Source of the DNA: a virus
Lineage: Duplodnaviria > Caudoviricetes
Reading direction: 5' to 3' (one strand)
Virus record (IMG/VR): IMGVR_UViG_3300010429_001696
Span: 1 to 64,000 of that record
DNA: 64,000 nucleotides
Part shown: positions 10,820 to 46,296 of the stretch, one piece after another
Numbering within the stretch: the stretch's first letter is position 1
How the letters are laid out: each line of letters opens with the position of its first letter
Made by a program: the position numbers and the translations under genes
Notes under the pieces: generated by a model
The model's database searches: none
Seen by the model: the letters and a program-made list of their open reading frames with translations, nothing else
What the model was told of the DNA's origin: nothing

Positions 10820-11946
10820 TTAAAAAATTTAAAATTTTTTTAAATGAGAAATATGAAGATATTCTAAAAAGTTATGGTAATGTAGCCAAAAATCTTCAAG
10901 ATGAAAGAGGTCACACTCCAAATGTATTCGGTCGCTTTGCGCATATCCCGTCAAACGGACTAGCAGAAAAATTATTGGAAAAATATTATGAACCAGGATT
11001 TAAATTATTAGACATAGGGTGTGGTCTGGGTAATATTTTAAAATTGGGCAATGAAATCGGATATCAATCAACAGGAATAGAAATAAACGAATCTTTAAAA
11101 AAATATCATGAAGGATTAAATGTGATTTATGGTGATGTTTTAAATATAGATCTAAAATTTATAAAGGATTTTGATGTTATATATCTATATAGACCATTGG
11201 GTCCATTAAACAAATGTAATAAATTATTTGAAAAATTATACAAAAATTGTAAAGATAATTGTAAAATAATATATGTTTATTCTTCTCAGTTAGAATTGGG
11301 TTTAAAAAGAAAATTTAATTTTGAAAAATTCGATACTGAGTTTACTTTCATGACGGATAGACCATATGACAAAAATTTCGAGAACTATTATTCGATATTA
11401 ACTCCTATAAAAAATGTAGAAGATGTTGATGCAAAAGAAGTTTTAAACAAAGCTATTAAAGAGCTTTCTAAGTATAGAGTAATAGATAATGAAGATTATA
11501 GTAGATCAGATCAAAAATATGGATCAACGTTTGTGTGTGACAATATAAACAACATAACAGATTTTTTGAGCCATTTAGAAAAATCATATCATTTAATTGA
11601 TAGCAACAATTTGGATATCAAATTTGCTCATACTTTTTATATCGAATATTCAGAAAAAGAAGAAGATTACAATAGAATAAAAATGAAATCTCCACTCGGG
11701 CGAGGCAAATATTATCCAGAATTTGACCCCACACCAAAAATAATGTATCTACCAATGGTTATATGGAGAATGAGCGGAATTGATATCGGAATCGAAAATA
11801 GACTTAAAAGGTTAGATATCATCAATTCTATTAAAAGAGATTTAAAAAGAATAGAAAATTATAAATTAAAATTTTTTAAATTATCTGTACATATGATTTA
11901 TTCTAAGATTGATGGCGAAATATATGAATTAATATATAAAATCTAA
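10816..11946 (+). CDS. Class I SAM-dependent methyltransferase with leader
   Basis: LLDIGCGLG, GIEIN, GDV, DVIYLYRP; N-terminal KKFKIFLNE. Confidence 0.75.
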   Translation: MIKKFKIFLNEKYEDILKSYGNVAKNLQDERGHTPNVFGRFAHIPSNGLAEKLLEKYYEPGFKLLDIGCGLGNILKLGNEIGYQSTGIEINESLKKYHEGLNVIYGDVLNIDLKFIKDFDVIYLYRPLGPLNKCNKLFEKLYKNCKDNCKIIYVYSSQLELGLKRKFNFEKFDTEFTFMTDRPYDKNFENYYSILTPIKNVEDVDAKEVLNKAIKELSKYRVIDNEDYSRSDQKYGSTFVCDNINNITDFLSHLEKSYHLIDSNNLDIKFAHTFYIEYSEKEEDYNRIKMKSPLGRGKYYPEFDPTPKIMYLPMVIWRMSGIDIGIENRLKRLDIINSIKRDLKRIENYKLKFFKLSVHMIYSKIDGEIYELIYKI

Positions 11947-11952
11947 TTTTTT

Positions 11953-12861
11953 CTAAAAATTTTTTAAAATGTTGCTAAATATATTTGAAATTTTTACATA
12001 ATATATTTCATTATATGAAGAATATTTATCATAATAAAAAATTTCTTTTATAGTTTTACTTGATATATCATCCAATTCTTTATATGATTTCTCTATATAC
12101 TCTTTATATTTTAATTTGAAAAATTTATTCCATTTATTATAATACTCAATCAAATCTTTTTTATCATGACATTCTTCACCATTAAAATATTGATTAAATA
12201 GTTTAGTAAAATTTAATAAATCGCTTATATCAGAAAATTGATCAATAAATTCGTTTGGGTCAAAATCTTTCAAAGATTCAAAAAATTTATATAAATATGA
12301 AGACTCAAATAATTTATACAATTCATCTTTACTACAATCACAATTTCTAAACTGAGCATATAACATTGTATATCTTGCTATTAACTCGTGTTCCAATGTC
12401 AAATAAACCAAATATAAAAATTTATCATATCTATTGTCAATATCTTTTTTTATTATAGAAACATATAAAGACTTCACAAAATCCAACATATCACTATCAT
12501 TCTCAATTGTGTAAATATCGTATATGTGTCTAATTTCGTGGGCGACAACAGATATCAGTTTATTCTTATCTATTTTTTTATCATATATTTCAATTGGTAT
12601 AATTATGTTTTCTCTGTTTCTATATAATAAATCATAGATGTTTACATTCGAATAATATACACTTTTTTCATCATCTTCGATAAAATTAATATGAACATTA
12701 GCAATATTATCTAGCAGCCCATATTTTCTCAAATCTAAATAAACGACACAAGATGAATCTACATTTTTCAAATCTTCCTCGATATAACTGATTATATTTT
12801 TAATATCCTCGGGAATATAAGATTTGAACTCGTTTAAAAAATTTTGATAATTATAAATCAT
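11953..12861 (-). CDS. Putative zincin metalloprotease-like protein
   Basis: VAHEIRH (HExxH) plus downstream EHELIAR; leader YQNFLNE. Confidence 0.55.
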   Translation of the reverse strand: MIYNYQNFLNEFKSYIPEDIKNIISYIEEDLKNVDSSCVVYLDLRKYGLLDNIANVHINFIEDDEKSVYYSNVNIYDLLYRNRENIIIPIEIYDKKIDKNKLISVVAHEIRHIYDIYTIENDSDMLDFVKSLYVSIIKKDIDNRYDKFLYLVYLTLEHELIARYTMLYAQFRNCDCSKDELYKLFESSYLYKFFESLKDFDPNEFIDQFSDISDLLNFTKLFNQYFNGEECHDKKDLIEYYNKWNKFFKLKYKEYIEKSYKELDDISSKTIKEIFYYDKYSSYNEIYYVKISNIFSNILKNF

Positions 12862-12901
12862 ATAAATATATATTCAATGAAATATCGTATGTTTTTGAAA
12901 G

Positions 12902-12973
12902 TTGAGATGAAAAGATTCGAACTTTTATCGGGTGATCCAAGAGTCACTAATGATGCCATTGCACCACATCTCA
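12902..12973 (-). tRNA. Atypical tRNA with 8-nt anticodon loop (CUCUUGGA; Lys-CUU or Gln-like)
   Basis: TGAGATG/CATCTCA acceptor, AAAAG-TTCGAAT-CTTTT T arm, GTGA/TCAC anticodon stem. Confidence 0.7.
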
Positions 12974-12976
12974 GAG

Positions 12977-13048
12977 TGGCGAGAGGGAATTTCGAAATCC
13001 CGGCCTAGCGAATATGAGTCGCTTGTTCTGCCTCTGAACTACCTCGCC
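12977..13048 (-). tRNA. tRNA-Met/Ile2 (CAT)
   Basis: GGCGAGG...AGCGA-CTCATAT-TCGCT...TCTCGCCA. Confidence 0.9.
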
Positions 13049-13160
13049 ATAATATTTTACAGAATACTTTTTTTGGACATATTTAAAAGACATGTTTTGG
13101 TTTTTTGTTGCTGTAAGTATTCTTTAGTTGTTTTGCTCATTAGATACCAGATTTTATTAG

Positions 13161-13233
13161 TTGCCCTGTCAGAGTATGATTCTGAATCTCAACATTCAAA
13201 GTGTTGCGTGATAGCCAATTTCACTACAAGGCA
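13161..13233 (-). tRNA. tRNA-Gln (TTG), non-canonical T loop ATCATAC
   Basis: TGCCTTG/CAGGGCA acceptor, CAACA-CTTTGAA-TGTTG. Confidence 0.85.
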
Positions 13234-13240
13234 GTATATC

Positions 13241-13492
13241 TTATATATTATATTTTTCGTATGTCTTCACCCATTTTTTAATCGCATTTCCACTAACGCC
13301 ATATTTTCTCCCAACACCACATAAACCAAATTCATCAATCTCATTTTTTAATTGCTCAAATGATGGTCTATCTACCTTTCTTCTAGATACAAAAGAATTC
13401 TTTATGTTGTTTTCTTTCTGTTTCAGTATAGACTTAAAATCATCTGGGATATACTTCTTAAATTCATTTAAAAAATCAAGATAATATTTCAT
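13241..13492 (-). CDS. Small protein: leader plus HTH like the C-terminus of phage HNH endonucleases
   Basis: MKYYLDFLNEFKKYIPDD; RRKVDRPS...GVGRKYGVSGNAIKKW. Confidence 0.65.
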   Translation of the reverse strand: MKYYLDFLNEFKKYIPDDFKSILKQKENNIKNSFVSRRKVDRPSFEQLKNEIDEFGLCGVGRKYGVSGNAIKKWVKTYEKYNI

Positions 13493-13559
13493 AAGGTTTT
13501 TAATTATATATTAAAAAATAATGATTTGGTTTAAATTTCAACATTTCAAAGAACTTTTG

Positions 13560-13645
13560 AGTCGACGGTCAGACTCGAACTGACATGCCTTTCGGTTTTT
13601 ACAATTTTGCAGATTGCTGGCTATTTCCAATTCACCCACGTCGAC
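13560..13645 (-). tRNA. tRNA-Cys (GCA) with enlarged variable region
   Basis: GTCGACG/CGTCGAC-T, GCAAT-CTGCAAA-ATTGT, variable AAAAACCGAAAGGCAT. Confidence 0.85.
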
Positions 13646-14526
13646 AAATTATTTAAATATTTTTGTTCATATTTTTTAATATCTTCTAAAAACCACACCT
13701 CAAAATCTAATCCTAATTTTTTTGCTGATTCCCATTTATTATAATCATCTTCTTTTATCCTGCCCTTTATCTCTAAATTTTTAATGCTATCATTGTTATT
13801 TATGATTCGAAAATCTATGATATAAGTGTGTTCATTTTTATCGATTCCAATATATTTTATTCTAACCTTACCATATTCCCAATCTTTGATCAAATTGATT
13901 TCTTTCATTTTATCTAAAATATAACAAGCTCTTAATTCATATGTTCCTTGAACTCTGATATCTTTATATTCTAACCATTTTGTTGTTCCACCAGCAACAT
14001 AATTCTTTCCAGTGTCGTAAGATTTTTTATTTACTTTGCTCCAATTTATATTAGAATTATGAACAGTTAACCATCCTCCTCTTTTTTTAGATGCACAACT
14101 AATACTGCAATATTTTTGATTTCTCTTAGCCCATTTTATTTCAAATTCTTTTTCACAATATTCACACTTTAATAATACTGTGTGACTATGGCATCCTTTA
14201 TCAGTCAAAGTTTTAGAAATTTTGTTTTTTGTTTCATCACTATGATTTCTGGAATTGGCGCATTTTCTTGAGCAGAATTTATTATATTTCCCTTTATCAA
14301 AATCGTTTTCAGTGATTCTAATATAGAAAATATTATTACATTTAGAACATTTTTGTTTTAATTCTATTCTTTTTGATTTTTCAACACCTTTAAATTTTTC
14401 TGAATTTTTTCTAATTCTCTCTTCTTTTTTGGGGTTTGAATCACAATTTGAAACATGTAAAGCATATAAACATTGTTTATCAACTTCTATTAATTTGTTA
14501 CACCATTTACAAATTTTACTATACAT
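13621..14526 (-). CDS. Zn-finger plus PD-(D/E)xK (TnsA-like) free-standing homing endonuclease
   Basis: Likely start MYSKICKWC at 14526; CxxC/FCSRKCANSR/YCSISCA motifs; QGTYELR..YIIDFRII..LEIKGR; 3' end overlaps tRNA-Cys. Confidence 0.75.
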   Translation of the reverse strand: MYSKICKWCNKLIEVDKQCLYALHVSNCDSNPKKEERIRKNSEKFKGVEKSKRIELKQKCSKCNNIFYIRITENDFDKGKYNKFCSRKCANSRNHSDETKNKISKTLTDKGCHSHTVLLKCEYCEKEFEIKWAKRNQKYCSISCASKKRGGWLTVHNSNINWSKVNKKSYDTGKNYVAGGTTKWLEYKDIRVQGTYELRACYILDKMKEINLIKDWEYGKVRIKYIGIDKNEHTYIIDFRIINNNDSIKNLEIKGRIKEDDYNKWESAKKLGLDFEVWFLEDIKKYEQKYLNNLSTWVNWK

Positions 14527-14605
14527 AATTATATATATAAAAATTTGCCGGTTCATAATAGAATCGAACTTAATATTTCCAATAATTTCAAAGAACTTAT
14601 CTAAG

Positions 14606-14908
14606 CGGTGCCGACCGGGCTCGAACCGGCGACTTCCTGCGTGCATTTTTTAAAACCTTTTTGTTTCCAAAAAGTTAGGACTATATCATCATCTCAGAGA
14701 GATGTTGGATGCTAATTTGGTATTATATTATATTGCTATAACCCCCAATAGTCTCTGCACCTTCCGTCTCTGACGGCTTGGCTCAGGATTACCATCTTTT
14801 TAAAAAAGTTAGGCTTCCCTGAATTCATCCAATTTTTCAATCATTATCGCTAATGAAAGCTGCCACTTCTGACAGGCAGGCATTCTAAACCAACTGAACT
14901 ACAGCACC
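14606..14908 (-). tRNA. tRNA-Asp (GTC) interrupted by group I intron
   Basis: 5' exon GGTGCTGTAGTTCAGTTGGTTTAGAATGCCTGCCTGT (14908-14872) plus 3' exon CACGCAGGAAGTCGCCGGTTCGAGCCCGGTCGGCACCG (14643-14606). Confidence 0.92.
14644..14871 (-). ncRNA. Group I intron (IC-like, ORF-less, 228 nt) at anticodon position 35/36
   Basis: Follows U, ends in G; core motifs AATTCAGGGAAGCC, GGTAATCCTGAGCCAAG, GTGCAGAGACTA, GATATAGTCC. Confidence 0.9.
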
Positions 14909-14978
14909 ATATTTTTTCAAAGCCAATAAATTAGCAAAGAAAATTAATTTTTTATCAATATTTCAATGAACTATTATG

Positions 14979-15063
14979 CGTCCCAGGAAGGATTCGAACC
15001 TACGTTGGATTTTCATCGTCGGGTTAACAGCCCGGACCGTTCGACCACTACGGCAACTGAGAC
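14979..15063 (-). tRNA. tRNA-Asn (GTT) with long variable arm
   Basis: GTCTCAG/CTGGGAC-G, CGGG-CTGTTAA-CCCG, variable arm GAT-GAAA-ATC. Confidence 0.85.
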
Positions 15064-15068
15064 TTTTG

Positions 15069-15155
15069 CGGTCCCTACGGGATTCGAACCCGTCTGAGAT
15101 ATTTCTATCAACCGATGTGACAGACCGGCAGCCACGCCTAGCAGCCCCAGAGACC
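15069..15155 (-). tRNA. tRNA-Asp (GTC) with long variable arm
   Basis: GGTCTCT/AGGGACC-G, CCGGT-CTGTCAC-ATCGG, variable arm GATA-GAAA-TATC. Confidence 0.85.
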
Positions 15156-15159
15156 AGAG

Positions 15160-15233
15160 TAGTCAAGGGCGGACTCGAACCGCCAGCCACGACTTTATCA
15201 GAGTCGCAATCTAACCAATTGATATACTTGACT
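15160..15233 (-). tRNA. tRNA-Ile (GAT)
   Basis: AGTCAAG/CTTGACT-A, CGACT-CTGATAA-AGTCG. Confidence 0.92.
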
Positions 15234-15263
15234 ATGCAATAATTTCAAAGAACTTAAAATTTG

Positions 15264-15333
15264 TGCCGCCGGAAGGATCTCGAACCTTCGCGCCGAGGTT
15301 TTACAGACCTGTCGCCTACCCTGGGTCGTCGGC
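15264..15333 (-). tRNA. Atypical tRNA-Tyr (GTA): short variable loop, weak D arm, 8-nt T loop
   Basis: GCCGACG/CGGCGGC-A, AGGT-CTGTAAA-ACCT, GAAGG-TTCGAGAT-CCTTC. Confidence 0.7.
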
Positions 15334-15350
15334 AATTCTAAAAAGATAAA

Positions 15351-15529
15351 AAAATTGTCTGCTCATTCCAAGTATGAAATAAAGTTTCTGGACATATCCT
15401 ATTAGGGACTTCACCAGAATGCAAGTCTACCTGACCTTTATCTTACTAAGCGAATTGACGTTTTCTTGGAAAAACTATGACAATCTTTCTGAAGGATTAT
15501 CATCGATTCACTTTTCACCAGACAATTTT
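15351..15529 (-). ncRNA. Unidentified multi-branched structured RNA (~180 nt)
   Basis: 11-bp closing stem AAAATTGTCTG/CAGACAATTTT; internal stems TGATAATC/GATTGTCA, GTTTT/AAAAC, TTCTGG/CCAGAA, AGATAAAG/CTTTATTT; no ORF; inside tRNA operon. Confidence 0.65.
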
Positions 15530-15532
15530 ATA

Positions 15533-15628
15533 AAAAATGTGTGTTCCAACATGAAACCGTAGGACTTTTTCCGTCTGATTACCGGAACCTGTGGGACACT
15601 GGGAATCGAACCCTCACCACACATTTTT
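15533..15628 (-). ncRNA. Unidentified structured RNA (~95 nt) with T-loop hairpin
   Basis: Closing stem AAAAATGTGTG/CACACATTTTT, GGG-TTCGATT-CCC, TTCCG/CGGAA. Confidence 0.6.
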
Positions 15629-15898
15629 AATCTCATTTTTTCAAAGAACTATTTTTTTATTATATTTTTTATATTTTTAACTTTTAACTTCAACCATCTT
15701 TTATTTCTAACAACCGTTCTATCTTTATCATTCAACTCCACTTTTTCGCCATCCCATATGCCAGTTAAATATATTTTTATGGATTTTCTACCATTTGAAT
15801 AATCATATTTAGAATCAACATATTCAACAAGATCCCCTTCCTCTATTTCATTATAATTTTTTTTATCATTGCTCCTTTCTTATTATATTTTTTAAAAC

Positions 15899-15932
15899 AA
15901 AAAAACCCAATCTTTTATTTCAGATTGGGTTT
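15899..15932 (-). terminator. Attenuator terminator of tRNA operon 1
   Basis: AAACCCAATCT-GAAATAAA-AGATTGGGTTT followed by TTTTGTTTT. Confidence 0.85.
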
Positions 15933-15960
15933 ATAAAAACTAAGCTATATGCAAAATGAT

Positions 15961-16023
15961 TCACCCAATCAGAATTTTCATTTGATCGTCATAAATATTC
16001 ATATAATTACACATAGTTTTCAT
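15961..16023 (-). CDS. Leader peptide 1, MKTMCNYMNIYDDQMKILIG
   Basis: 20-codon ORF whose end (GATTGGGTGA) is complementary to the terminator 5' arm; codons match downstream tRNAs. Confidence 0.8.
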   Translation of the reverse strand: MKTMCNYMNIYDDQMKILIG

Positions 16024-16030
16024 AATTGCT

Positions 16031-16120
16031 CGTTTATTATATATTGTATTAAAAAAGTCGTTTTTTTCCGTTTTTGTTTTAATTATACGACAAAATTACT
16101 AAAAAGTTTCAAAATAAAAA
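16031..16120 (-). promoter_or_regulatory. Promoter module 1 (TAATTTTG element plus AATATATA element)
   Basis: ~90 bp near-duplicate of 17789-17880; TAnnTTTG at 16091-16098. Confidence 0.7.
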
Positions 16121-16139
16121 ATATTTTTTAATTTTTTTT

Positions 16140-16418
16140 TTAAAAAACTCCGTTATCTTCGCCATATGTTGCATTCCAATAGATTATATCTTTTATATCT
16201 ATAATTACATCATCTAAAGTTTTTACTCTATAAGGCCTAGCTCTTTTTAATTCATCTGGTGTGAAAATTCTATGATTATACATTTTCATTGCTTTTTCAG
16301 CCTTATCATTTGTCTCCTCACAAAAATTTTCAGCTTCTTTTATGTCTGTAAAAATATGATAAAAGATTGTATCATCTGGTGTTATAACTACATAAATTTC
16401 ACTCGTTTCATATCTCAT
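16140..16418 (-). CDS. Hypothetical protein
   Basis: Open ORF in a minus-strand gene run. Confidence 0.6.
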   Translation of the reverse strand: MRYETSEIYVVITPDDTIFYHIFTDIKEAENFCEETNDKAEKAMKMYNHRIFTPDELKRARPYRVKTLDDVIIDIKDIIYWNATYGEDNGVF

Positions 16419-16511
16419 CGTTTTTTTTTATTTTTTTTATCTAGGGCTTTTGTGGTCTTTCTACGAAATCTTCACCGAAAGGATCATCCGTATTAAATGC
16501 TTCAAATTTTT

Positions 16512-17117
16512 TCATGTTAATTTATCATTTTCCTTATCAGATATTCTATTAACAAAATATGTATTGTCTTGTGGAAGTTTTTTTGAAACATTAAAAGAAT
16601 GAATTTCATTTTTATATTTCAATCTCAGATAATTCTCTCTGTTTTTATCAATCTGGATGCATTGAAATATCGTTATCACCATGGCCAACATAGATATAAT
16701 AAATCCATTAATAGAGCCCTGATCATTTATTCCTCTAAAGAAACATATAATATAAAATATGAATATGGCTGCTGTTAATATGATTGCTCCGGTTGTGAAA
16801 ATTCCAATTTCTTCATTTTTCTTATCCAAAAAAATATTAAATATAAAATTTATTCCTTTATCATAAAACTTTTTTATTTTATTTAAAATGTTGAATCTTT
16901 CTCCAATCTGTTCTATTTTATCAATATCTATTATATTATTGCTAAAATATTCTAATATCATTTTCTGATATTTTGGACTCAAACTACTAAAAACATTAAC
17001 TATCTTATTTCTTATACCATCATCATTTATATACTTGTTTATTAATTTCAAATCGAAATCGATGGTATTGTTCTCGGCTAAGAATTCATCATAATTTTTC
17101 ATTTTCCTATCTTTCAT
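16512..17117 (-). CDS. Hypothetical membrane protein with T4 CTS-like leader
   Basis: MKNYDEFLAE; two hydrophobic segments. Confidence 0.65.
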   Translation of the reverse strand: MKDRKMKNYDEFLAENNTIDFDLKLINKYINDDGIRNKIVNVFSSLSPKYQKMILEYFSNNIIDIDKIEQIGERFNILNKIKKFYDKGINFIFNIFLDKKNEEIGIFTTGAIILTAAIFIFYIICFFRGINDQGSINGFIISMLAMVITIFQCIQIDKNRENYLRLKYKNEIHSFNVSKKLPQDNTYFVNRISDKENDKLT

Positions 17118-17175
17118 TTTATTAATATTTCTTTTTATTTTATATATTAATAAAAAAAAACAGAAAAAATAATAA

Positions 17176-17376
17176 TTACCATCTTATAATTTTGAAGTTT
17201 GCTCCTTTACTTTTTACTATTTTACCTTCTTTTTCGAGTTCAGCAATAATGATATCAACCAGAACTTTATTCAATTCTGATATATCCCAGTAGTAAAAAG
17301 TATCTCCTCGCTTCGCTGATTTTAAAATCTCACGACGAAGAAATTTTAATATTTCTTGTTTTTGTTCTGGTAACAT
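17176..17376 (-). CDS. Hypothetical protein
   Basis: Start MLPEQK at 17376; the longer ORF call overlaps a tRNA. Confidence 0.6.
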   Translation of the reverse strand: MLPEQKQEILKFLRREILKSAKRGDTFYYWDISELNKVLVDIIIAELEKEGKIVKSKGANFKIIRW

Positions 17377-17396
17377 TTTTTTTTGTAAGTTTTTTG

Positions 17397-17476
17397 TTGT
17401 GGTGGAGGGATTTGAACCCTCATACACCAGATTACGCTTTTAATGCATGTTTATAAGACATGTGCGATACACCACA
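17397..17476 (-). tRNA. tRNA-Ile (TAT)-like, lacking a normal D arm
   Basis: TGTGGTG/CACCACA-A, 7-nt connector, CATGT-CTTATAA-ACATG, 24-nt extra region, GAGGG-TTCAAAT-CCCTC. Confidence 0.75.
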
Positions 17477-17482
17477 ATATTG

Positions 17483-17558
17483 TACTCCCGATGGGACTCG
17501 AACCCACAACTTCCGCCTTGAAAGGGCGGCGACTTTAAACCAGTTCGTCTACAGGAGC
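17483..17558 (-). tRNA. tRNA-Glu (TTC)
   Basis: GCTCCTG/CGGGAGT-A, CCGCC-CTTTCAA-GGCGG. Confidence 0.92.
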
Positions 17559-17566
17559 TTATGATT

Positions 17567-17640
17567 TGGTAGCCTGTTTGGAAATCGAATCCAAATTGTC
17601 GATGTGAGAAACCGATCTCCTGCCATTAGAGGAACAGGCC
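17567..17640 (-). tRNA. tRNA-Glu (CTC) with encoded CCA
   Basis: GGCCTGT/ACAGGCT-ACCA, TCGGT-TTCTCAC-ATCGA. Confidence 0.88.
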
Positions 17641-17676
17641 ATATATTTTTTTTTCAAAGAACAATCAAAACATAAC

Positions 17677-17703
17677 AAAAAACCCAATCTTTTTTGATTG
17701 GGT
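17677..17703 (-). terminator. Attenuator terminator of tRNA operon 2
   Basis: ACCCAATC-AAAAAA-GATTGGGT followed by TTTTTGTT. Confidence 0.85.
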
Positions 17704-17738
17704 CTCTTATATAAAAAAGCATATAAAAATATTCCCAA

Positions 17739-17789
17739 TCAAGTTGGCGAGTTTTCTATCTCTTCATATATGTTAAAATTTTTCATCAT
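17739..17789 (-). CDS. Leader peptide 2, MMKNFNIYEEIENSPT
   Basis: Contains ATA TAT GAA GAG ATA GAA; stop lies within TTGATTGGG, complementary to the terminator 5' arm. Confidence 0.8.
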   Translation of the reverse strand: MMKNFNIYEEIENSPT

Positions 17790-17880
17790 TTATTATATAT
17801 TGTATTTAAAAAGTCGTTTTTTTCCGTTTTTCGTTTCAATTATAGCACAAAATTACTAAAAAGTTTTAAATAAAAAAAAT
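17789..17880 (-). promoter_or_regulatory. Promoter module 2 (duplicate of module 1)
   Basis: TAnnTTTG at 17848-17855, then AAAACGGAAAAAAACGACTTTTT..AATACAATATATAATAAA. Confidence 0.7.
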
Positions 17881-17893
17881 TAAATTTATTATT

Positions 17894-18130
17894 TTATATT
17901 TTTACTAAATCTTTGTAGTTATAACAATATTTTAAACCAGATGGCAACCATATCACATCGAATTCATCTGGTTCATCGTTATATGGATTTCCAGCAACAA
18001 TTCCCTCACAATTCCCAAATTCATATCCATGACTAGCGCTTCCAAGTAAACCATCACCAGATAATTTTAATTTTTCTTTAAAATCATTTGACATTTTTAC
18101 CTTATCTCCTATTTTATAGTCGTTTTTCAT
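17894..18130 (-). CDS. Small SH3/KOW-like hypothetical protein
   Basis: YKIGDKVKM...GIV...DVIW; TAATTTTG upstream. Confidence 0.6.
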   Translation of the reverse strand: MKNDYKIGDKVKMSNDFKEKLKLSGDGLLGSASHGYEFGNCEGIVAGNPYNDEPDEFDVIWLPSGLKYCYNYKDLVKI

Positions 18131-18182
18131 AATGAAGCAAAATTATAAAAAAAGTTTGAAATAAAAAATTTTTTAAAAAAGT

Positions 18183-18350
18183 TCAAACTATTCTTTTCTT
18201 ATTGAATTTCATATTTACATCAGACGATTTTTCTTCGCCATCACTTACAGAAAAACCACCGACTTCCGTTTTTTTGTTTGGTTTTTGAATATCATGGAGT
18301 TTAGAAAATTCTTCGAATTTGAGTAAATTATCTAATTTTTTTTCAGCCAT
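18183..18350 (-). CDS. 55-aa protein with leader and KTEVG motif (absent from ORF track)
   Basis: MAEKKLDNLLKFEEFSKLHDIQKPNKKTEVGG; TTAATATATA upstream; resembles N-termini at 36911 and 37148. Confidence 0.65.
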   Translation of the reverse strand: MAEKKLDNLLKFEEFSKLHDIQKPNKKTEVGGFSVSDGEEKSSDVNMKFNKKRIV

Positions 18351-18404
18351 TTTAAATGAATTTTTTATTGTATATATTAAAAAATTTCATTCAAAAATAA
18401 TCAC

Positions 18405-18647
18405 TTAGATAATTTCCAGTTCTCTATTATCTATACGGCCTTCAACTGTAAAATATCCAGCATCTGGACCTTGTGGTACACTAAAAAATAAAGTTTCATC
18501 ATCATTTTGATGAATTTTTACTTTCTTGCTAAATTTACTCATCACTTTATCTTTGGCTTCTAAAAAGGTGTTTGCTTCAACTCCTTTTGTCCAGATGCCC
18601 ATAGTGACAGTCCCATTAAAAACTTGTTGAGTAACTATGTAAATCAT
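18405..18647 (-). CDS. Hypothetical protein
   Basis: Open ORF in operon. Confidence 0.6.
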   Translation of the reverse strand: MIYIVTQQVFNGTVTMGIWTKGVEANTFLEAKDKVMSKFSKKVKIHQNDDETLFFSVPQGPDAGYFTVEGRIDNRELEII

Positions 18648-18679
18648 AATATTTTAATATTTTTTTAACATTCTTTCTT

Positions 18680-19246
18680 TCATTTAAAAATATATATTCC
18701 TTTATTATTTAATAATCCATCACAATAACAACATCTTACTTTATAATCCTTAAAAACTATTCTTAAAAAATAATCATATAATTTATTTTTCCTATCATCT
18801 TGTGATAATCCAATAACATAAGAATAATTTTTAATTTTGTTATAATCTCTTACAATATAACCGATTTTGCCTAGTACTTCATATATCTCTTTTTTATTAG
18901 TTGGCTCTTCATACCTATCCACATCTCTATTTAATTCCGTGAATGAAATGTTATAAACAAATTCGTTGTTGATTTTATCACAATAGTTTTTCATTTTTAA
19001 AAGATCCAACCTATAATAATTATTAGAAGATGTTTGAAATCTTATGGTAATTATATCATTATCTAAATATATTACATCATAGTTCACGTCAGAATAATCC
19101 TTATCAAAAATTTCATTTAATTTTAAAAAAGGATTTTCGCCAATATATTTACTGGTATATATTTTAATATTTTTGTCTAATCTATTGTTATTGAATACTT
19201 TATAATATTCTTTAAAAGTTAGATAAGAAACATAAAGATATTTCAT
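18680..19246 (-). CDS. Hypothetical protein
   Basis: Open ORF in operon. Confidence 0.6.
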   Translation of the reverse strand: MKYLYVSYLTFKEYYKVFNNNRLDKNIKIYTSKYIGENPFLKLNEIFDKDYSDVNYDVIYLDNDIITIRFQTSSNNYYRLDLLKMKNYCDKINNEFVYNISFTELNRDVDRYEEPTNKKEIYEVLGKIGYIVRDYNKIKNYSYVIGLSQDDRKNKLYDYFLRIVFKDYKVRCCYCDGLLNNKGIYIFK

Positions 19247-19255
19247 TTAAAAAAA

Positions 19256-19534
19256 CTAAATTCTTTCATATCCACTCTCAAATGCTTCGGCAGGAGAAAA
19301 TGATTTATATCCATCTTTATATACAACATAGTAACCTCCAACTTGTGGTTTATGTTTTTGCATATATTCAAAATTCACCTTGAATGGAGCATAAGCTTCT
19401 TCTTCTGGAGTAATCATAGCGCTTCCATCCGTTTCTCTGTTCTCACCTTCACCATCTCTCACAATGGATTTAATTTTTAACGCCCAAACTTCTTTGTAGC
19501 ATTTATATTTTGGCATTTCGATTGATGCGCACAT
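19256..19534 (-). CDS. Conserved phage hypothetical protein
   Basis: PKYKCYKEVWALKI...GGYYVVYKDGYKSFSPAEAFESGY. Confidence 0.75.
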   Translation of the reverse strand: MCASIEMPKYKCYKEVWALKIKSIVRDGEGENRETDGSAMITPEEEAYAPFKVNFEYMQKHKPQVGGYYVVYKDGYKSFSPAEAFESGYERI

Positions 19535-19543
19535 AATTTTATA

Positions 19544-19750
19544 TTATTTTTCTTCTTCTGTTTCTGTTTTTTCAACATCAACATCTTCATCTTTTATATC
19601 TTCGTTTTCTTCGTTCTTAGCTTTTCCGCATTTTTTTGCATATCTTACAAAATATTTAGCAAGTAATTCTGTGTCATTCGACCAGTCATCTTCTCTTTTC
19701 TTATCAATTTTCTTGATAAACCGTTTAGCATTTTTAATGTTGTTTTTCAT
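19544..19750 (-). CDS. Hypothetical protein
   Basis: Open ORF. Confidence 0.55.
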   Translation of the reverse strand: MKNNIKNAKRFIKKIDKKREDDWSNDTELLAKYFVRYAKKCGKAKNEENEDIKDEDVDVEKTETEEEK

Positions 19751-19796
19751 ATATTATTTTTTTTATATTATTTTATACTCCTAAAAATTAAATGTT

Positions 19797-20315
19797 TTAT
19801 TTTTTAACAAAATTTTCTAAAAAGAAATTTTTTATTTTGTTTCCATTTTCAGTGACCTCGGGATGACCTTGAAAAGCCAATATTGGTTTGGTTTTATGTC
19901 TTATCCACATAACCATACCATTTACAATTTCTCCAACAAATCCATCTGGTATTCTATCGAAATAATAAGTGTGATTATAAAACATATTATAATTTTCACC
20001 AACAAATCTTAAATTTTCATTGAGTTTCCTATTTTTTGTCATTTTTTTCATTTCTCCACCAAAGGTATGGCATAAAATATGGAGACCCAAGCATATACCT
20101 AAAACTGGCTTATTGGTTTGTTTCAACCATTCTTTTTCTTTTTTAATATTTTCAAACGTTTCGTCCGGTGTTGGACCGCCAGATAAAACTATATAATCAT
20201 ATTGTTCGGCAACTTCACTATTAAAGTTTGTGCAGTTTATCATATCGCATCCATCAAATAATTTTATGATTTCGCCGATATATTTTGTGTTATGATTGAT
20301 TATAAGACCTTTCAT
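19797..20315 (-). CDS. Class I glutamine amidotransferase
   Basis: LSGGP, PVLGICLG, FQGHPE triad. Confidence 0.9.
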   Translation of the reverse strand: MKGLIINHNTKYIGEIIKLFDGCDMINCTNFNSEVAEQYDYIVLSGGPTPDETFENIKKEKEWLKQTNKPVLGICLGLHILCHTFGGEMKKMTKNRKLNENLRFVGENYNMFYNHTYYFDRIPDGFVGEIVNGMVMWIRHKTKPILAFQGHPEVTENGNKIKNFFLENFVKK

Positions 20316-20374
20316 TTTTCAAAATTAATAAAAAAATATTTCAGAAAAAAAAAATTAATATATAATTTTTGATT

Positions 20375-21412
20375 ATGAATATTAAACTTTTTGAACAATT
20401 TTCTGATGAAAAATATAAAGTTGGAGATCTTTTTTATGTTAGAGATCCAAAGAATTATGATGTATATGAATTGATCGAAATTTCTGAGGAACCTGTTTTA
20501 CATTGGGGAATAAGTCGCTCGGAGAAAAAAACTGACATTTATTATAATGTAAGTTCGGATGGAAATACACTCAGTTATACAAAAAATTATTTTGATAGTA
20601 TATTTGGTCTTATTGATAATAAAACAACAGAAAAATATAAAAAGAAAGAGTTATTAAAATTTAACATATCTCAAGATTTGAAAAATATTCTATATGATTT
20701 CGATTTTAAACCAGAAAAGCCAAATTTATATGAATATACAAATTTTGATACAAATGAAAAAAACAATAATTTAATAGATTGTAAAGATGCCAATGGGAAA
20801 AAACTATCTATTCGTACAGGCAAATTTTTTAAAATGATATGTCCTAACTCTAAACCTACAAGAATAGAATACCTTGTTGGTGAATATAAATCTAGACATG
20901 ATATGATTTATAACAAAATTAATTTAGAAATAGTCAAGGGAGAAGAAATACGGCATTGGTACTTGGATGAGAACTACAAAGAAGGACATGGAAGCCTAAA
21001 TAATTCTTGTATGAGATTTAAAGATTGTCAAAAAAAATTAAACCTTTATTGTGACAATCCAAAAAAAGTCGCTCTTGTTATATTAAAAAGTGAAGAAAAT
21101 AAATTGCTTGGAAGGGCTCTTTTATGGAAATTAGACAAACCAAATAATAAAATTTATATGGATAGAATATATACTGTAGTGGATTTTTATGAAAACATTT
21201 TTTTAAAATTCGCAAGAAAAAATGGATATTTAAATTATTATGACAGTAGAGAAAAAATGGTCGTTGAACTTAAAACAAAATCAAGTCCTGATAAAAATCC
21301 ATATATGGACACATTTTCATGTTATAATTATAAAAAACATTTTTTAACAAATTATATAGACTATGATTTTGATGAAGATGATGATAATTACGAAACATTT
21401 GACTATGCTTAA
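20375..21412 (+). CDS. Phage protein, SCM/GRALLW/MDRIY family, paralog 1
   Basis: IKLFEQF leader; GSLNNSCMR...LGRALLWK...MDRIY...PYMDT. Confidence 0.75.
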   Translation: MNIKLFEQFSDEKYKVGDLFYVRDPKNYDVYELIEISEEPVLHWGISRSEKKTDIYYNVSSDGNTLSYTKNYFDSIFGLIDNKTTEKYKKKELLKFNISQDLKNILYDFDFKPEKPNLYEYTNFDTNEKNNNLIDCKDANGKKLSIRTGKFFKMICPNSKPTRIEYLVGEYKSRHDMIYNKINLEIVKGEEIRHWYLDENYKEGHGSLNNSCMRFKDCQKKLNLYCDNPKKVALVILKSEENKLLGRALLWKLDKPNNKIYMDRIYTVVDFYENIFLKFARKNGYLNYYDSREKMVVELKTKSSPDKNPYMDTFSCYNYKKHFLTNYIDYDFDEDDDNYETFDYA

Positions 21413-41798: not shown

Positions 41799-43136
41799 AT
41801 GAAGAAATTCGGTAATTTTCTAAATGAGGATGCTGAGCCTAAGGAGCTTGTGAAAATGATATTTTCTGATGATTTCAAGAAAACATTAACGAATATACTT
41901 GAGGTAAGGCAAAGTAATATATCAAAAAGATTACTAGAACTTCCTAAATCGGACCAGAAGTTTGACATATCTTATGTTGATATTGATGAGGAAAAAGATT
42001 CTGTTACCTATTTGACTATCAATAGAATAGAAAGATTAAAAAAAGAAGGGGCACTGCCCGATGAGTACTGGAAAACAAAATTAAGAGACACAACAAAAAT
42101 AGGTAGATTTGTTAAAAAGATATTTGGTTCGAAATTTAATGAAAAAAGCGTCAATGCTTTCGCCGATAAATTCAAAACTATGTCTGGCTCAGACCAAAAT
42201 CTTCATAAATTTGAAATAGTTGATGGGGATGATTTGATTTATTGGTACAATAGAAATAATTATTCGGAGAAAATTGGTACTCTTGGGGCTGATGTAATGT
42301 CATACAATGCGTCGAGCATTTATTTGAATATGTATAGTAAAAATCCTAAAAAATGTAAGTTATTGATATTGAAAAGTGATACCAATGATAAAAGAATTAT
42401 AGGACGAGCTCTTTTATGGAAATTAACTACTCCAAGTGATAAAATCTTTATGGATAGAGTTTATTCCACAAAATCATCTCATGTTGATTTATTTATAAAT
42501 TATGCTAAAAGAGAGGGATGGTTATATAAAGGCGAGCAAGTATACGGAGATTCTCCTATCGTTAATGATGGAGTTGATAGAAACATTAAAATGCATGTTG
42601 AAATAGATAACACGGACTTTAAATATTATCCTTTCGTTGACACTTTGAGATATTATTATCCAAATCTAAAAATATTAGCCAATCACAAAGAATTAGATGA
42701 TATAATATATACCTTGAATGACGAGAATGGTAAATATCAAGAATATGAATGGGATAGTGAAAAGGGATTTAAAAAAGATCCAACTGTTTTCGATTCTAAT
42801 GCTTCTAAGGATATAAATTTTCGAGATGCTATGTGGTGCGAGGTTGACAATGCTTATTGTGGAAAAAGAGATGCGGTTTTTCTATCCTATAAAAATGTAT
42901 ATGCTTTACCGAAATCAGATAAAATAGTATATTCAGAGTATCAAAAAAGGTATTATTTAAAAGAAGATTGCGTTTGGTCTGAGCCATTAAAAAGTTGGAT
43001 ATGGAATAAATATGCTGTTGATGTTTATCACGATAAAGACAGAACAACCGATCCAGATAAAGTTCATCGTTTTGAAGTGAACAGATCTATTAAAAAGGTG
43101 GGCGATTATTGGTACGACATAGACTTAGATATCTAA
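41799..43136 (+). CDS. SCM/GRAL/MDRIY family, paralog 3 (Cys lost)
   Basis: GTLGADVM..IGRALLWK..MDRVY..PFVDT; leader MKKFGNFLNE. Confidence 0.75.
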   Translation: MKKFGNFLNEDAEPKELVKMIFSDDFKKTLTNILEVRQSNISKRLLELPKSDQKFDISYVDIDEEKDSVTYLTINRIERLKKEGALPDEYWKTKLRDTTKIGRFVKKIFGSKFNEKSVNAFADKFKTMSGSDQNLHKFEIVDGDDLIYWYNRNNYSEKIGTLGADVMSYNASSIYLNMYSKNPKKCKLLILKSDTNDKRIIGRALLWKLTTPSDKIFMDRVYSTKSSHVDLFINYAKREGWLYKGEQVYGDSPIVNDGVDRNIKMHVEIDNTDFKYYPFVDTLRYYYPNLKILANHKELDDIIYTLNDENGKYQEYEWDSEKGFKKDPTVFDSNASKDINFRDAMWCEVDNAYCGKRDAVFLSYKNVYALPKSDKIVYSEYQKRYYLKEDCVWSEPLKSWIWNKYAVDVYHDKDRTTDPDKVHRFEVNRSIKKVGDYWYDIDLDI

Positions 43137-45649
43137 GTTGTGAATCTATTTATTATATAACAAATATAACTTATTTCATCCTTGCTTATTTGATGATTGT
43201 TTGGTAAATATAGACCATATTTGTCGACCAGCACAGAATTTAACATATCTTTATTTTCACCATATAAATCTAGCCAAAATGGTTGTTTTGTTATAGCCCC
43301 ACAGATTAATGGCCTGGTTTCTATATCAGCTTCATTTAATGATTTGACAATTTCTTTGATACGAGGATGTATTATGGGGTAGGCAAAATTTGATATAAAA
43401 CAATTTTTTGGAGGAGATAATTTCCAATATTGATTTTCTATCAAATTGTCATATAATTTAAAATTTTCATTTCTTTTATTTATAATAAATTCTAGTTTAT
43501 CTATTTGTCTCAATCCTATAAAAGCCTGTAAATCAGTTGATCTCAAATTAAAGCCAGGATAATAAAAAGTATATAACGATTTGAAATCATCAACTGAATA
43601 TTTTTCTCTCATCTTCTGTTTGTATTCGCTGCTCCAATCTCTATCCCACCCATGAGATCTTATGGACATTAAAATGTTGTATAATTTCACATCGTCCGTT
43701 GAAACAAATCCACCTTCTATCGTGGAGTTGTGCAAACATATGGGTTGATTCCCACCGACAAAATTCTCTAAATTTTTTACACTAAAATCAAACACGTATT
43801 CATATTCTGGCGATATTTCTTCAATACTTCTAATTTTAATTGGAATGATATCACCGTTTTTGAATTTATCAAGATTCTCTTTTATTCCATATAGATTTAT
43901 TTTTTTATATGATTCATTGAAGATAATTTCACCATCATTATTGAATGTTATGTTGTTTAATACAAATTGATATTGTGGTTTGACATTAGATATTTTATTA
44001 CTATTTTTGAACTTCCTTTCTTTTTTGTTATTGATTGTTATTAACCCACCATTTAATCCTATGATATTACACAAATAAGATATGTCTGTTATCAACTTTT
44101 CGGAAACGCTTGTGACACTAATTCGATTTTTTCCTTTAATGGTGCCGTCGCCGGAGAAATATGCGTATAAAAAAGATATTATGCATTCATTGCTGCTATG
44201 AAATATAAATGATGGTATTCTTTTATTAGATGCCCCAGATTTTATATTAAAAAAATCTTTAAATACTATTTTTAATGTTTCGGACGAAACTTTAATATTG
44301 CAAGAGTTTGTATTTTCATTGAAATTTTTATATGAATTTAATCCAAAAATAGATTTTATAGAATTTGTGACATCATCAATATATTCTTTTTCCTTTATAT
44401 CAAATGAAAAATTTAATGAAGAATCACCATACGACCCCTCAGCTAAAAAATATCCAATTAAACGGCATAATTCTTTATTTATTTTATATTTAACTGGTAT
44501 ATATTTGTCCCTTGGTGTTCTTTTTTTTGCTATTTTTAAATCATTTTTATCGGTTTTTAAATATTCAATTGGTAAAATTTTTCTTTTTTTCCAGTTATAT
44601 TTTTGTTTATTTTCTTTACTATTCCATTTGAAATGAATATCATCTAAATCTTTTATATCATAATCGATCACAAAAAACTCATTTTTCATTTTTTTACAAA
44701 AATTCAAAAAATCTAATTCTTTTTTAACATGAGGCCTTTGTATTTTTGTCGGAACAAAAATATAATCATCCAGTTTTATATCACATCCTTTTACAATAGA
44801 AATATCAGATTTTTCTTTATCATATTTAAAAACACTGTGATCCTCTGTTAATTCGACAATTCTATTATTAAATAATTTTAATTGAAAAATTTTTTTATTA
44901 TCGATTTTATGTTTTAAAATGTGATCGGGACTCACATATATTGTCTTATAGTTTTCATCAAACGATAATATTTTTATTTTTGACACATCAGAGTTATATT
45001 TATTGTAAATTTCATCAATATTTTCTATATTAAAAATGTTATTCTCATCCAGATAAGGTATTGGAGTTTTTGGGGACACTGACATATGGTGCCCCATATA
45101 TAGACTAAAACTACTCATCGAGCCAAAACAACCAGTTTGAATGTTCTCATAAGTCGAGCCGATTGATTCGCAAGAATCTTCCAATAAAATAACATCATAC
45201 TTTAAACAAAGATCCATTATTTCTGTCATTTTATTAGGGGTGCCTAAAACATGAACTATGATCAGAGTGGCGGGTTTTTCTTTTTCAAATATTTTTTCAA
45301 GTGCTTCTATATTAATGCCCAATGTGTCCATTTCTATATCGCAAACTATTGGCTCATATCCAAGTTGTATGAAGGGAGATATAGTAGTCACCCAAGATAC
45401 ATCTGGAAAAACAATTTTTTTATTTTTTAAATATCCACTTTGTAGCAAAGCATATGCCATTGCTAGATTGGCGGATGAGCCAGAGTTTAAATAAACAGAA
45501 TATTTTCTTCCCAGAAAATTAGACCATTTCTTTTCTAATTCAATGGTTAATTCTCCCTTTGTTAATCTGGGATATGGATAAGTTTGTAACCAGATGACCA
45601 GTTCGTCTATATCTTTCTTGTCTATTGTGTCATTTACTAGTTTAATCAT
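43133..45649 (-). CDS. ColD-like PLP enzyme (DegT/DnrJ family; GDP-4-keto-6-deoxymannose 3-dehydratase-like) with intein
   Basis: NSGSSANL, LLEDSCES, SFSLYMGHHM^STIEGG, SHGWDR, GFNLRSTDLQA; 386-aa extein. Confidence 0.85.
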   Translation of the reverse strand: MIKLVNDTIDKKDIDELVIWLQTYPYPRLTKGELTIELEKKWSNFLGRKYSVYLNSGSSANLAMAYALLQSGYLKNKKIVFPDVSWVTTISPFIQLGYEPIVCDIEMDTLGINIEALEKIFEKEKPATLIIVHVLGTPNKMTEIMDLCLKYDVILLEDSCESIGSTYENIQTGCFGSMSSFSLYMGHHMSVSPKTPIPYLDENNIFNIENIDEIYNKYNSDVSKIKILSFDENYKTIYVSPDHILKHKIDNKKIFQLKLFNNRIVELTEDHSVFKYDKEKSDISIVKGCDIKLDDYIFVPTKIQRPHVKKELDFLNFCKKMKNEFFVIDYDIKDLDDIHFKWNSKENKQKYNWKKRKILPIEYLKTDKNDLKIAKKRTPRDKYIPVKYKINKELCRLIGYFLAEGSYGDSSLNFSFDIKEKEYIDDVTNSIKSIFGLNSYKNFNENTNSCNIKVSSETLKIVFKDFFNIKSGASNKRIPSFIFHSSNECIISFLYAYFSGDGTIKGKNRISVTSVSEKLITDISYLCNIIGLNGGLITINNKKERKFKNSNKISNVKPQYQFVLNNITFNNDGEIIFNESYKKINLYGIKENLDKFKNGDIIPIKIRSIEEISPEYEYVFDFSVKNLENFVGGNQPICLHNSTIEGGFVSTDDVKLYNILMSIRSHGWDRDWSSEYKQKMREKYSVDDFKSLYTFYYPGFNLRSTDLQAFIGLRQIDKLEFIINKRNENFKLYDNLIENQYWKLSPPKNCFISNFAYPIIHPRIKEIVKSLNEADIETRPLICGAITKQPFWLDLYGENKDMLNSVLVDKYGLYLPNNHQISKDEISYICYIINRFTT
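43727..45082 (-). mobile_element. Intein (452 aa) with LAGLIDADG homing endonuclease
   Basis: Begins SVSPKTPI; block B VELTEDHSVF; LIGYFLAEGS and FLYAYFSGDG; ends VFDFSV..NFVGG..CLHN followed by Ser. Confidence 0.92.
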
Positions 45650-45654
45650 ATTTT

Positions 45655-46296
45655 TTAAGGTTGTTTTATAATTTGGCTAAATTCAACATCAATTGGAGTT
45701 CTTCTGCCAAATATTTTTACTGATATTTTCATTCTTCTTTTATCCTCATTTATCTCTTCTATAGTGCCATTAAAATTTGAAAAGGGACCTTCTGTTATTA
45801 TAACTGTTTCTCCCAAAATAAAATCGTTAATATTTTCAGTTTTTTCTTTCGATTCATCCACTTTTCCGAGAATAGCATTTATTTCGCTTTCGCGCATTGG
45901 TGTACAAATATATTTTTTAATTTTCTTTCCAGTGTTTTCATCTTTAATTTCTTGCCATCCTCCAAGCATATTCATAACTCCATCAGTGTTGTTGATAATA
46001 TGCAGGATCTCTGGTTCCAGGCGAGATTGTATCAATAAATATCCAGGGAAAAAATTTACTTCGCGGGTCGCTTTTTTTCCTTTTCTAATATAATTTTCTT
46101 TTCTGGTGGGTAATATGAGATTTAAAACCATATCTTCCAATCCACTTAAACGCAATTGTGATTCTATGTGTTTTTTAGCTTTTTTCTCTTGTGCGCTATA
46201 ACATCTTATGACATACCATTTTACATCATTTAATTCTGGTGTAACTGGATTCATTTCAATTTTTTCTTCTTCTTTGGGTGTGTCCATAATGTTCAT
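45655..46296 (-). CDS. nusG: Transcription antitermination factor NusG
   Basis: WYVIRCYSAQE, FFPGY, GETVIITEGPFSNFNG, VKIFGRRTP. Confidence 0.93.
   Translation of the reverse strand: MNIMDTPKEEEKIEMNPVTPELNDVKWYVIRCYSAQEKKAKKHIESQLRLSGLEDMVLNLILPTRKENYIRKGKKATREVNFFPGYLLIQSRLEPEILHIINNTDGVMNMLGGWQEIKDENTGKKIKKYICTPMRESEINAILGKVDESKEKTENINDFILGETVIITEGPFSNFNGTIEEINEDKRRMKISVKIFGRRTPIDVEFSQIIKQP

Follow-up and report, generated by a model that had tools for sequence, protein, structure and literature searches.

We found that a group of three tRNA genes in a phage genome is preceded by a compact leader module, which is best read as a ribosome-mediated transcription attenuator of the trp/ilv type and probably provides feedback on tRNA supply. 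The stretch of DNA analyzed here (the window) comprises 64,000 nucleotides and represents the first 64 kb of an IMG/VR phage record of 193,754 bp. On the minus strand of the window, this module, which we call module 2, consists of a promoter-like cassette, a short leader open reading frame (ORF), a 35-nt spacer, an intrinsic terminator, and a GTTCTTTGAAA box, followed by the three tRNA genes (Table 1). A sequence-only reading had proposed an attenuator at this location. The sequence, the codon statistics, and the computed RNA folds support the proposal: the short ORF contains a cluster of codons cognate to the downstream tRNAs, and the terminator behind it competes with a mutually exclusive antiterminator. 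The predictions of the attenuator reading also hold, as the third tRNA cluster of the same phage begins with a Leu-rich leader, and about 30 modules in related megaphages display the correspondence between leaders and tRNAs.

Table 1. Features of the three leader modules and of the tRNA genes behind module 2. Positions refer to the window unless a genome position is indicated.
Feature	Position	Strand	Remark
Promoter-like and 5'UTR cassette, module 2	17790..17880	(-)	near-identity to 16036-16126; ends right before the leader start codon
Leader ORF, module 2	17739..17789	(-)	16 codons + TGA
Sensing codons 7-12 (ATA TAT GAA GAG ATA GAA)	17754..17771	(-)	5/6 read by the three downstream tRNAs
Antiterminator upstream strand TTGATTGGG, overlapping the stop codon	17734..17742	(-)	9 bp, perfect, with 17702-17694
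Inner 10-bp A/U hairpin, stacking within the antiterminator	17704..17729	(-)	nascent-transcript fold
Intrinsic terminator (ACCCAATC, A6 loop, GATTGGGT, T6)	17676..17703	(-)	terminator scan and fold
GTTCTTTGAAA box (boxA-like)	17652..17662	(-)	between terminator and first tRNA
tRNA-Glu(CUC)	17567..17640	(-)	ARAGORN; Rfam 49.7 bits
tRNA-Glu(UUC)	17482..17558	(-)	ARAGORN; Rfam 60.7 bits
Aberrant tRNA, anticodon UAU (reads AUA)	17397..17476	(-)	Rfam tRNA 39.7 bits, cut-off 29; no ARAGORN call
Leader ORF, module 1 (20 codons)	15961..16023	(-)	GATTGGGT at 15970-15963
Terminator, module 1 (same CCCAATC/GATTGGG stem)	15903..15932	(-)	terminator scan and fold
Leader ORF, module 3 (30 codons)	genome 153018-152926, outside the window	(-)	ahead of tRNA-Leu GAG, CAA, UAG, UAA

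Re-reading the letters of the module 2 leader reproduced the claimed ORF to the base, including the run of sensing codons 7-12, five of which are indeed decoded by the three tRNAs encoded downstream. In a random 15-codon ORF with the codon usage of this genome, at least five codons out of {GAA, GAG, ATA} within six consecutive ones are expected with P = 1.1e-3. Over the whole leader, 5/15 codons belong to this set (P = 0.03). GAA and ATA are common codons in this genome, accounting for 5.7% and 5.5% of all codons, respectively. By itself, the codon match of module 2 is modest and suggestive; the replication across modules makes it solid. The codon choice for isoleucine is also specific to each module: the leader of module 2, with the UAU tRNA downstream, uses only ATA, and the leader of module 1, with a tRNA-Ile(GAU), uses only ATT. 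The single mismatched codon in the sensing run of module 2, TAT, may be a relic of shared Tyr/Glu operons, because the tRNA-Glu genes share operons and leaders with tRNA-Tyr genes in the megaphages LR745206 and LR756502.

As for the tRNA genes themselves, both tRNA-Glu genes named in the earlier reading were recovered by ARAGORN and Rfam. The tRNA-Ile(UAU) is plausible from its Rfam score, but it is an odd tRNA. Its anticodon arm is clean, with the anticodon loop CUUAUAA, whereas 4 nt stand in place of the D arm and a 21-nt insert occupies the variable region after the anticodon arm. Given this aberrant structure, the UAU tRNA may be no functional Ile acceptor.

The entire record contains only three tRNA clusters, and all three of them begin with the same module. 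Codons 4-15 of the module 1 leader encode solely Met, Cys, Asn, Tyr, Ile, Asp, and Gln, the very amino acids of the tRNAs downstream, and 14 of its 19 codons match its own tRNA set. Module 3 (genome G000:C1 152926-153110) was located by prediction from the attenuator reading. It is composed of the cassette, the leader, the terminator, a GTTCTTTGAAA box, and four tRNA-Leu genes. Its leader contains nine Leu codons covering all six Leu codon types, among them CTC and CTG, each of which makes up less than 0.4% of the codons in the genome. The three leaders match their own tRNA sets with P = 1.5e-4 (module 1), 0.03 (module 2), and 2.3e-4 (module 3, Leu content), versus background level for the other two sets in each case.

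Several additional features were observed in these clusters. An ORF for an HNH endonuclease resides between two tRNA genes of the module 3 cluster. The DNA separating the module 1 terminator from its first tRNA (window 15351-15900, minus strand) contains short ORFs, structured RNA-like segments, and one tRNA-like T arm. A sub-threshold tRNA-Tyr(GUA)-like gene (Rfam 27.2 bits) is located at 15333-15264, and ARAGORN detected a tRNA with the four-base anticodon CUUG at window positions 12901-12973 on the minus strand (Rfam 43.3 bits).

The Pfam families Gp23 and Terminase_6C were looked for in the genome and not found, and we therefore placed the phage by its T4-type SSB. This protein shares 64% identity with its counterpart in LR756501 (735 kb) and about 41% with those of LR756502, LR756504, and LR745206. 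On this basis, the "Mahaphage" genomes of 635-735 kb are relatives of the phage. The four megaphages are the genomes above 634 kb of Al-Shayeb et al. (2020), who assigned them to the Mahaphage clade and predicted Bacteroidetes as their hosts (PMC7162821). CheckV rated the 194-kb record as 92% complete and related 152-kb fragments as 21% complete. Because the closest relatives are far larger (635-735 kb) and the related 152-kb fragments only 21% complete, the record possibly represents just part of a much larger genome.

In 12 related contigs, no tRNAs flank the SSB gene, and no relatives were found for the 201-aa protein (16512-17117) encoded next to module 2. The only informative relatives were one related IMG/VR record and the four GenBank megaphages. 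The related record (G004, 61 kb, SSB 48% identical) possesses a 33-codon leader with 14 consecutive Leu/Ser/His/Tyr codons, which is followed by a terminator and then by exactly Tyr, Ser, His, and Leu tRNAs. Scanning the tRNA clusters of the four megaphages with our own script identified about 25 tRNA groups, each with a strong terminator 10-100 nt upstream. These terminators are preceded by ORFs of 16-42 codons, the middle of which lists the amino acids of the following tRNAs, e.g., QQIQQQQ before three tRNA-Gln genes, KKKK before four tRNA-Lys genes, FWHFHF before His and Phe tRNAs, and LSLCLSLSLSL before Leu/Ser/Cys tRNAs.

To quantify this correspondence, we swapped the tRNA sets among 32 automatically defined modules from six genomes. 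The own sets match 324 of the 843 leader codons versus 136 +/- 16 for the permuted sets (z = 11.8), and none of 100,000 permutations reached the observed value. The leader contains all amino acids of its tRNA set in nearly every module. A prospective IMG/VR search with the CCCAATC/GATTGGG terminator gave 96 matches; nine of these were followed by tRNAs, and seven of the nine had a matching leader.

The correspondence also reaches below the level of amino acids. When the tRNAs of an operon cover only a single codon box of Ile, Arg, Ser, or Leu, this box is the one favored in the leader (odds ratio 6.7, p = 5e-4). In addition, leader and tRNA cargo co-vary, as far as the sequences tell, when tRNA genes move between operons: in LR756501, the Met, Gln, Ile(UAU), and Glu tRNAs form one group, and the leader in front of them abounds in codons for Ile, Met, Gln, and Glu, whereas in our phage the Met and Gln tRNAs belong to cluster 1, leader 1 contains Met and Gln, and leader 2 lists only Ile(ATA) and Glu. 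Both features are informative about the signal to which the device would respond. The same device might report amino acid supply or charging, i.e., Glu or Ile starvation or general translation stress, and read-through would then be a general stress response. Ribosome stalling is the same for a missing and an uncharged tRNA, and the classical attenuators as well as the whiB7 uORF respond to both (PMC10274678). However, the regulated genes are tRNA genes, and extra tRNA gives no relief of amino acid starvation. Moreover, leaders that follow the anticodon set beyond the amino acids and change together with relocated tRNA genes are not what a starvation sensor would call for. We thus consider this alternative unlikely.

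The attenuator reading requires, besides matching codons, two RNA structures that exclude each other. The terminator of module 2 has an 8-bp G/C-rich stem, which can be extended to 15 pairs, and a folding energy of about -15.8 kcal/mol. It belongs to a set of strong terminator-like hairpins that numbers only about 21 over the 194 kb. The sequence TTGATTGGG (17742-17734) is perfectly reverse-complementary to CCCAATCAA (17702-17694), i.e., the 9-nt strand over the stop codon complements the 5' arm of the terminator plus one loop base. The exact complementarity together with the nascent-transcript fold bears out the 9-bp pairing, exclusive of the terminator, that had been claimed. For the nascent folds, we used the RNA up to the terminator loop and masked a 28-nt ribosome footprint. 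With the A site on any of the codons 7-12, or with the ribosome absent, the antiterminator of module 2 forms with -16.1 kcal/mol, a stability close to that of the terminator. Moving the A site to the UGA abolishes the antiterminator and frees the 5' arm of the terminator. The supposition that a stalled ribosome leaves the antiterminator strand free is thus reproduced by the footprint-masked folds.

When the full-length RNA was folded at equilibrium, the terminator was always preferred, and the states were not discriminated. The attenuator model therefore depends on co-transcriptional kinetics, with translation and transcription presumably coupled closely enough. The complete RNA of classical attenuators likewise prefers the terminator at equilibrium. 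A CCAA/TTGG hairpin, which had been suggested as a weak protector, appears only in the full-length equilibrium fold and is absent on the nascent transcript, in which the antiterminator prevails, leaving the hairpin unsupported as a kinetic element.

The nascent folds of module 1 revealed the same switch as in module 2. An untranslated leader of module 1 also sequesters the strand, resembling the 1:2 pairing in trp. In module 3, the antiterminator strand is located 13-27 nt ahead of the stop codon; termination there would depend on a ribosome passing over the strand or sitting inside the loop. With the ribosome stalled in the sensing run, half or more of the terminator 5' arm was paired upstream in every one of 30 curated modules, and 5'-arm pairing was lower in the stop-codon state than in the stalled state (Wilcoxon p = 0.002). 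In 18 of the 30, a ribosome parked at the stop codon alone fails to mask the antiterminator strand under the simple footprint model, and these modules, as modeled, need a ribosome in transit or steric exclusion. Pairing between the 3' part of a leader and the terminator arm of the same module is stronger than for shuffled sequences (mean z = -2.8), and also stronger than with most arms of other modules (mean rank 4.9 of 29). The GATTGGG strand is found in two frames, encoding ...Leu-Ile-Gly-stop in module 1 and several relatives and lying across the stop codon in module 2. Because the strand is kept in different frames, the constraint acts on the RNA, not on the peptide.

Upstream of the leader, the cassettes of modules 2 and 1 are nearly identical over about 85 nt, followed by total divergence at the leader ORF. 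A variant of the cassette precedes module 3 (genome 153110-153025). The cassette of module 2 contains TAATTTTG at 17855-17848 and TATAAT at 17844-17839, and it presumably functions as a promoter. The motif TAnnTTTG is not enriched upstream of the ORFs of this genome (13 upstream versus 9 in the internal control), and an IMG/VR search with the cassette motif returned only unrelated sigma-70 promoters of marine phages without tRNAs. The module 2 leader has no Shine-Dalgarno motif in front of it. Since such motifs precede only 4 of 158 long ORFs of this genome, where the region -20..-10 is A-rich, we rejected the missing motif as evidence against translation of the leader, which we presume to take place. 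A-rich starts without Shine-Dalgarno motifs are presumably the Bacteroidota pattern. The leaders in all genomes share the N-terminus Met-Lys/Thr-Thr/Asn-x-Asn-x-Asn-Ile ahead of the sensing run, possibly as an A-rich ramp for initiation.

The GTTCTTTGAAA box between terminator and tRNA genes occurs eight times in the genome, always on the sense strand of tRNAs (window 13544-17662; genome 108239, 151646, 152856). It also occurs in the 61-kb relative and in LR756501, but few if any terminators of the more distant LR756502, LR756504, and LR745206 are followed by it. In principle, the box could be a boxA-like antitermination element, a processing site, or an internal start or promoter. The phage encodes a NusG-like transcription antiterminator (window 45655-46296, minus strand; phrog_6386, E = 9e-26), which could work jointly with boxA-like boxes. 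If the tRNAs were transcribed from an internal start near GTTCTTTGAAA, the terminator could be a constitutive insulator of a tiny leader transcript, and the ORF would act otherwise, for instance, in stability or processing or as a decoy. The position of the box, usually 10-25 nt ahead of a tRNA or ncRNA 5' end, would suit such a start. However, the box lacks the TA of the -7 motif and has no -10 hexamer, the leaders of the three megaphages in which it is rare or absent match their tRNAs equally well, and the specific, frame-independent complementarity between the leader 3' end and the terminator arm would be left unexplained. We regard an insulator as highly improbable. Coincidence, i.e., a chance short ORF in AT-rich DNA beside the ordinary terminator of an upstream unit, could draw on the common GAA and ATA codons and on single-module P values of only 0.03 to 1e-3, but it is effectively refuted by the comparative data, namely a module at 3/3 of the phage's own clusters, the permutation result of z = 11.8 for 32 modules, a promoter-like cassette separating the upstream gene from the leader, and fitting prospective IMG/VR matches.

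Under the ribosome-mediated attenuator, which we favor, the region 17880-17397 on the minus strand would constitute one transcription unit of promoter, leader mini-gene, attenuator, and three tRNA genes, and the regulated products would be the very tRNAs for which the leader contains test codons. RNA polymerase would start approximately 45-50 nt ahead of the leader, and a ribosome would translate the 16-codon ORF behind the polymerase. With an ample supply of Glu-tRNA(UUC/CUC) and of the tRNA reading AUA, the ribosome would reach the UGA and cover the strand UUGAUUGGG, allowing the terminator hairpin (17703-17682) to form before the U-tract and to stop transcription ahead of the tRNA genes. 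Slow decoding of AUA, GAA, or GAG would stall the ribosome at codons 7-12, leaving a gap of at least 11 nt to the UUGAUUGGG strand downstream. The strand could then pair with the 5' arm of the terminator (9 bp on the 10-bp inner hairpin, -16 kcal/mol), which would block the terminator and let the polymerase continue into the tRNA genes. The predicted outcome in vivo is negative feedback, by which each tRNA block would be made on demand.

What appears to be the same device is also found ahead of the remaining two tRNA clusters of the phage and of tRNA blocks across the Mahaphage-type megaphages. We tentatively propose, as one possibility among others, that the modules represent a distributed "tRNA-on-demand" system, in which each operon would be an autonomous homeostat, switched on when its own codons are decoded slowly. 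The physiological trigger might be a host tRNA pool unfit for the AT-rich codon usage of the phage. It might also be host defenses such as anticodon nucleases, or host shut-off, destroying specific tRNAs. If the proposal is true, leader-peptide attenuation would serve huge phages as a general counter-defense and translation-takeover sensor, and one could read from each leader, as from a label, which tRNAs its operon supplies.

Enterobacterial leader-peptide attenuators include the multivalent leaders thrL (Thr/Ile) and ilvGMEDA (Ile/Val/Leu) and the single-amino-acid leaders trpL, hisL, and leuL. Module 2 resembles the thrL/ilv/trpL-type leaders in its short ORF with clustered cognate codons, its terminator and exclusive antiterminator, and the position of the ribosome as the presumable selector. 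The distance from the stop codon to the end of the U-tract is about 63 nt in module 2, and the spacing in trpL is similar. Unlike in amino acid operons, the targets of the phage modules are tRNA genes instead of biosynthetic enzymes, and the sensed molecules would be the products, i.e., direct feedback. The phage leaders list up to seven amino acids matching the tRNA cargo of the operon, and the modules are encoded by phages, occur several times per genome behind a common promoter-like cassette, and are devoid of Shine-Dalgarno motifs. In the pheM leader/pheST attenuator of E. coli, the leader tests the amino acid whose synthetase is controlled. It is alike in that a component of the translation apparatus is controlled, which is a synthetase there and tRNAs, often for several amino acids, here. 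T-box riboswitches recognize uncharged tRNA by direct binding, do not involve translation, and regulate synthetase or amino acid genes. The likeness lies in sensing a specific tRNA state and in the terminator/antiterminator switch. A cmscan of positions 11000-21000 at E <= 1 gave no match to the Rfam leader families (Trp, His, Leu, Thr, and similar) or to the T-box, and it returned tRNA-type matches and one weak unrelated match. A further single-amino-acid leader-peptide attenuator is pheL (PMC3082878). In the whiB7/wblC attenuator of Actinobacteria, stalling in a uORF leads to antitermination; it responds to knock-down of tRNAs and synthetases, and the composition of the uORF sets the specificity (PMC10274678). 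The whiB7 system differs in controlling the transcription factor of a stress regulon and in having no codon-by-codon match to downstream tRNA genes.

Phage tRNAs are usually viewed as a passive supply compensating for codon-usage mismatch or as a replacement of cleaved host tRNAs, and, to our knowledge, the regulation of large phage tRNA sets is essentially unknown. We found no description of leader attenuation of tRNA genes in open-access papers and preprints, and neither "attenuat" nor "leader" occurs in the text of Al-Shayeb et al. (2020; PMC7162821). The new elements are the tRNA genes as a target, the "checklist" leaders matched to the cargo, and the way in which huge phages employ the device as a module in multiple copies. 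If the attenuator reading is true, decoding speed would feed back on tRNA genes by a logic so far tied to amino acid operons and a few stress regulators, and megaphages would meter subsets of their tRNAs one by one. The leaders could be used as a sequence-only predictor of operon boundaries and tRNA identities, the aberrant UAU tRNA included, and possibly reveal the codons that limit phage translation. The small modular parts of about 115 nt might also be exploited as tRNA- or codon-specific sensors in synthetic biology.

Two further observations concern the translation of these phages and their coding sequences. The LR756501 genome carries two adjacent tRNAs with a CUA anticodon at 690585-690737 (amber suppressors, labeled "Pyl" by ARAGORN), which hints at TAG recoding. 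In the window, a gene for a DegT/DnrJ-type aminotransferase (43133-45649, minus strand) is split by an intein with a LAGLIDADG endonuclease domain.
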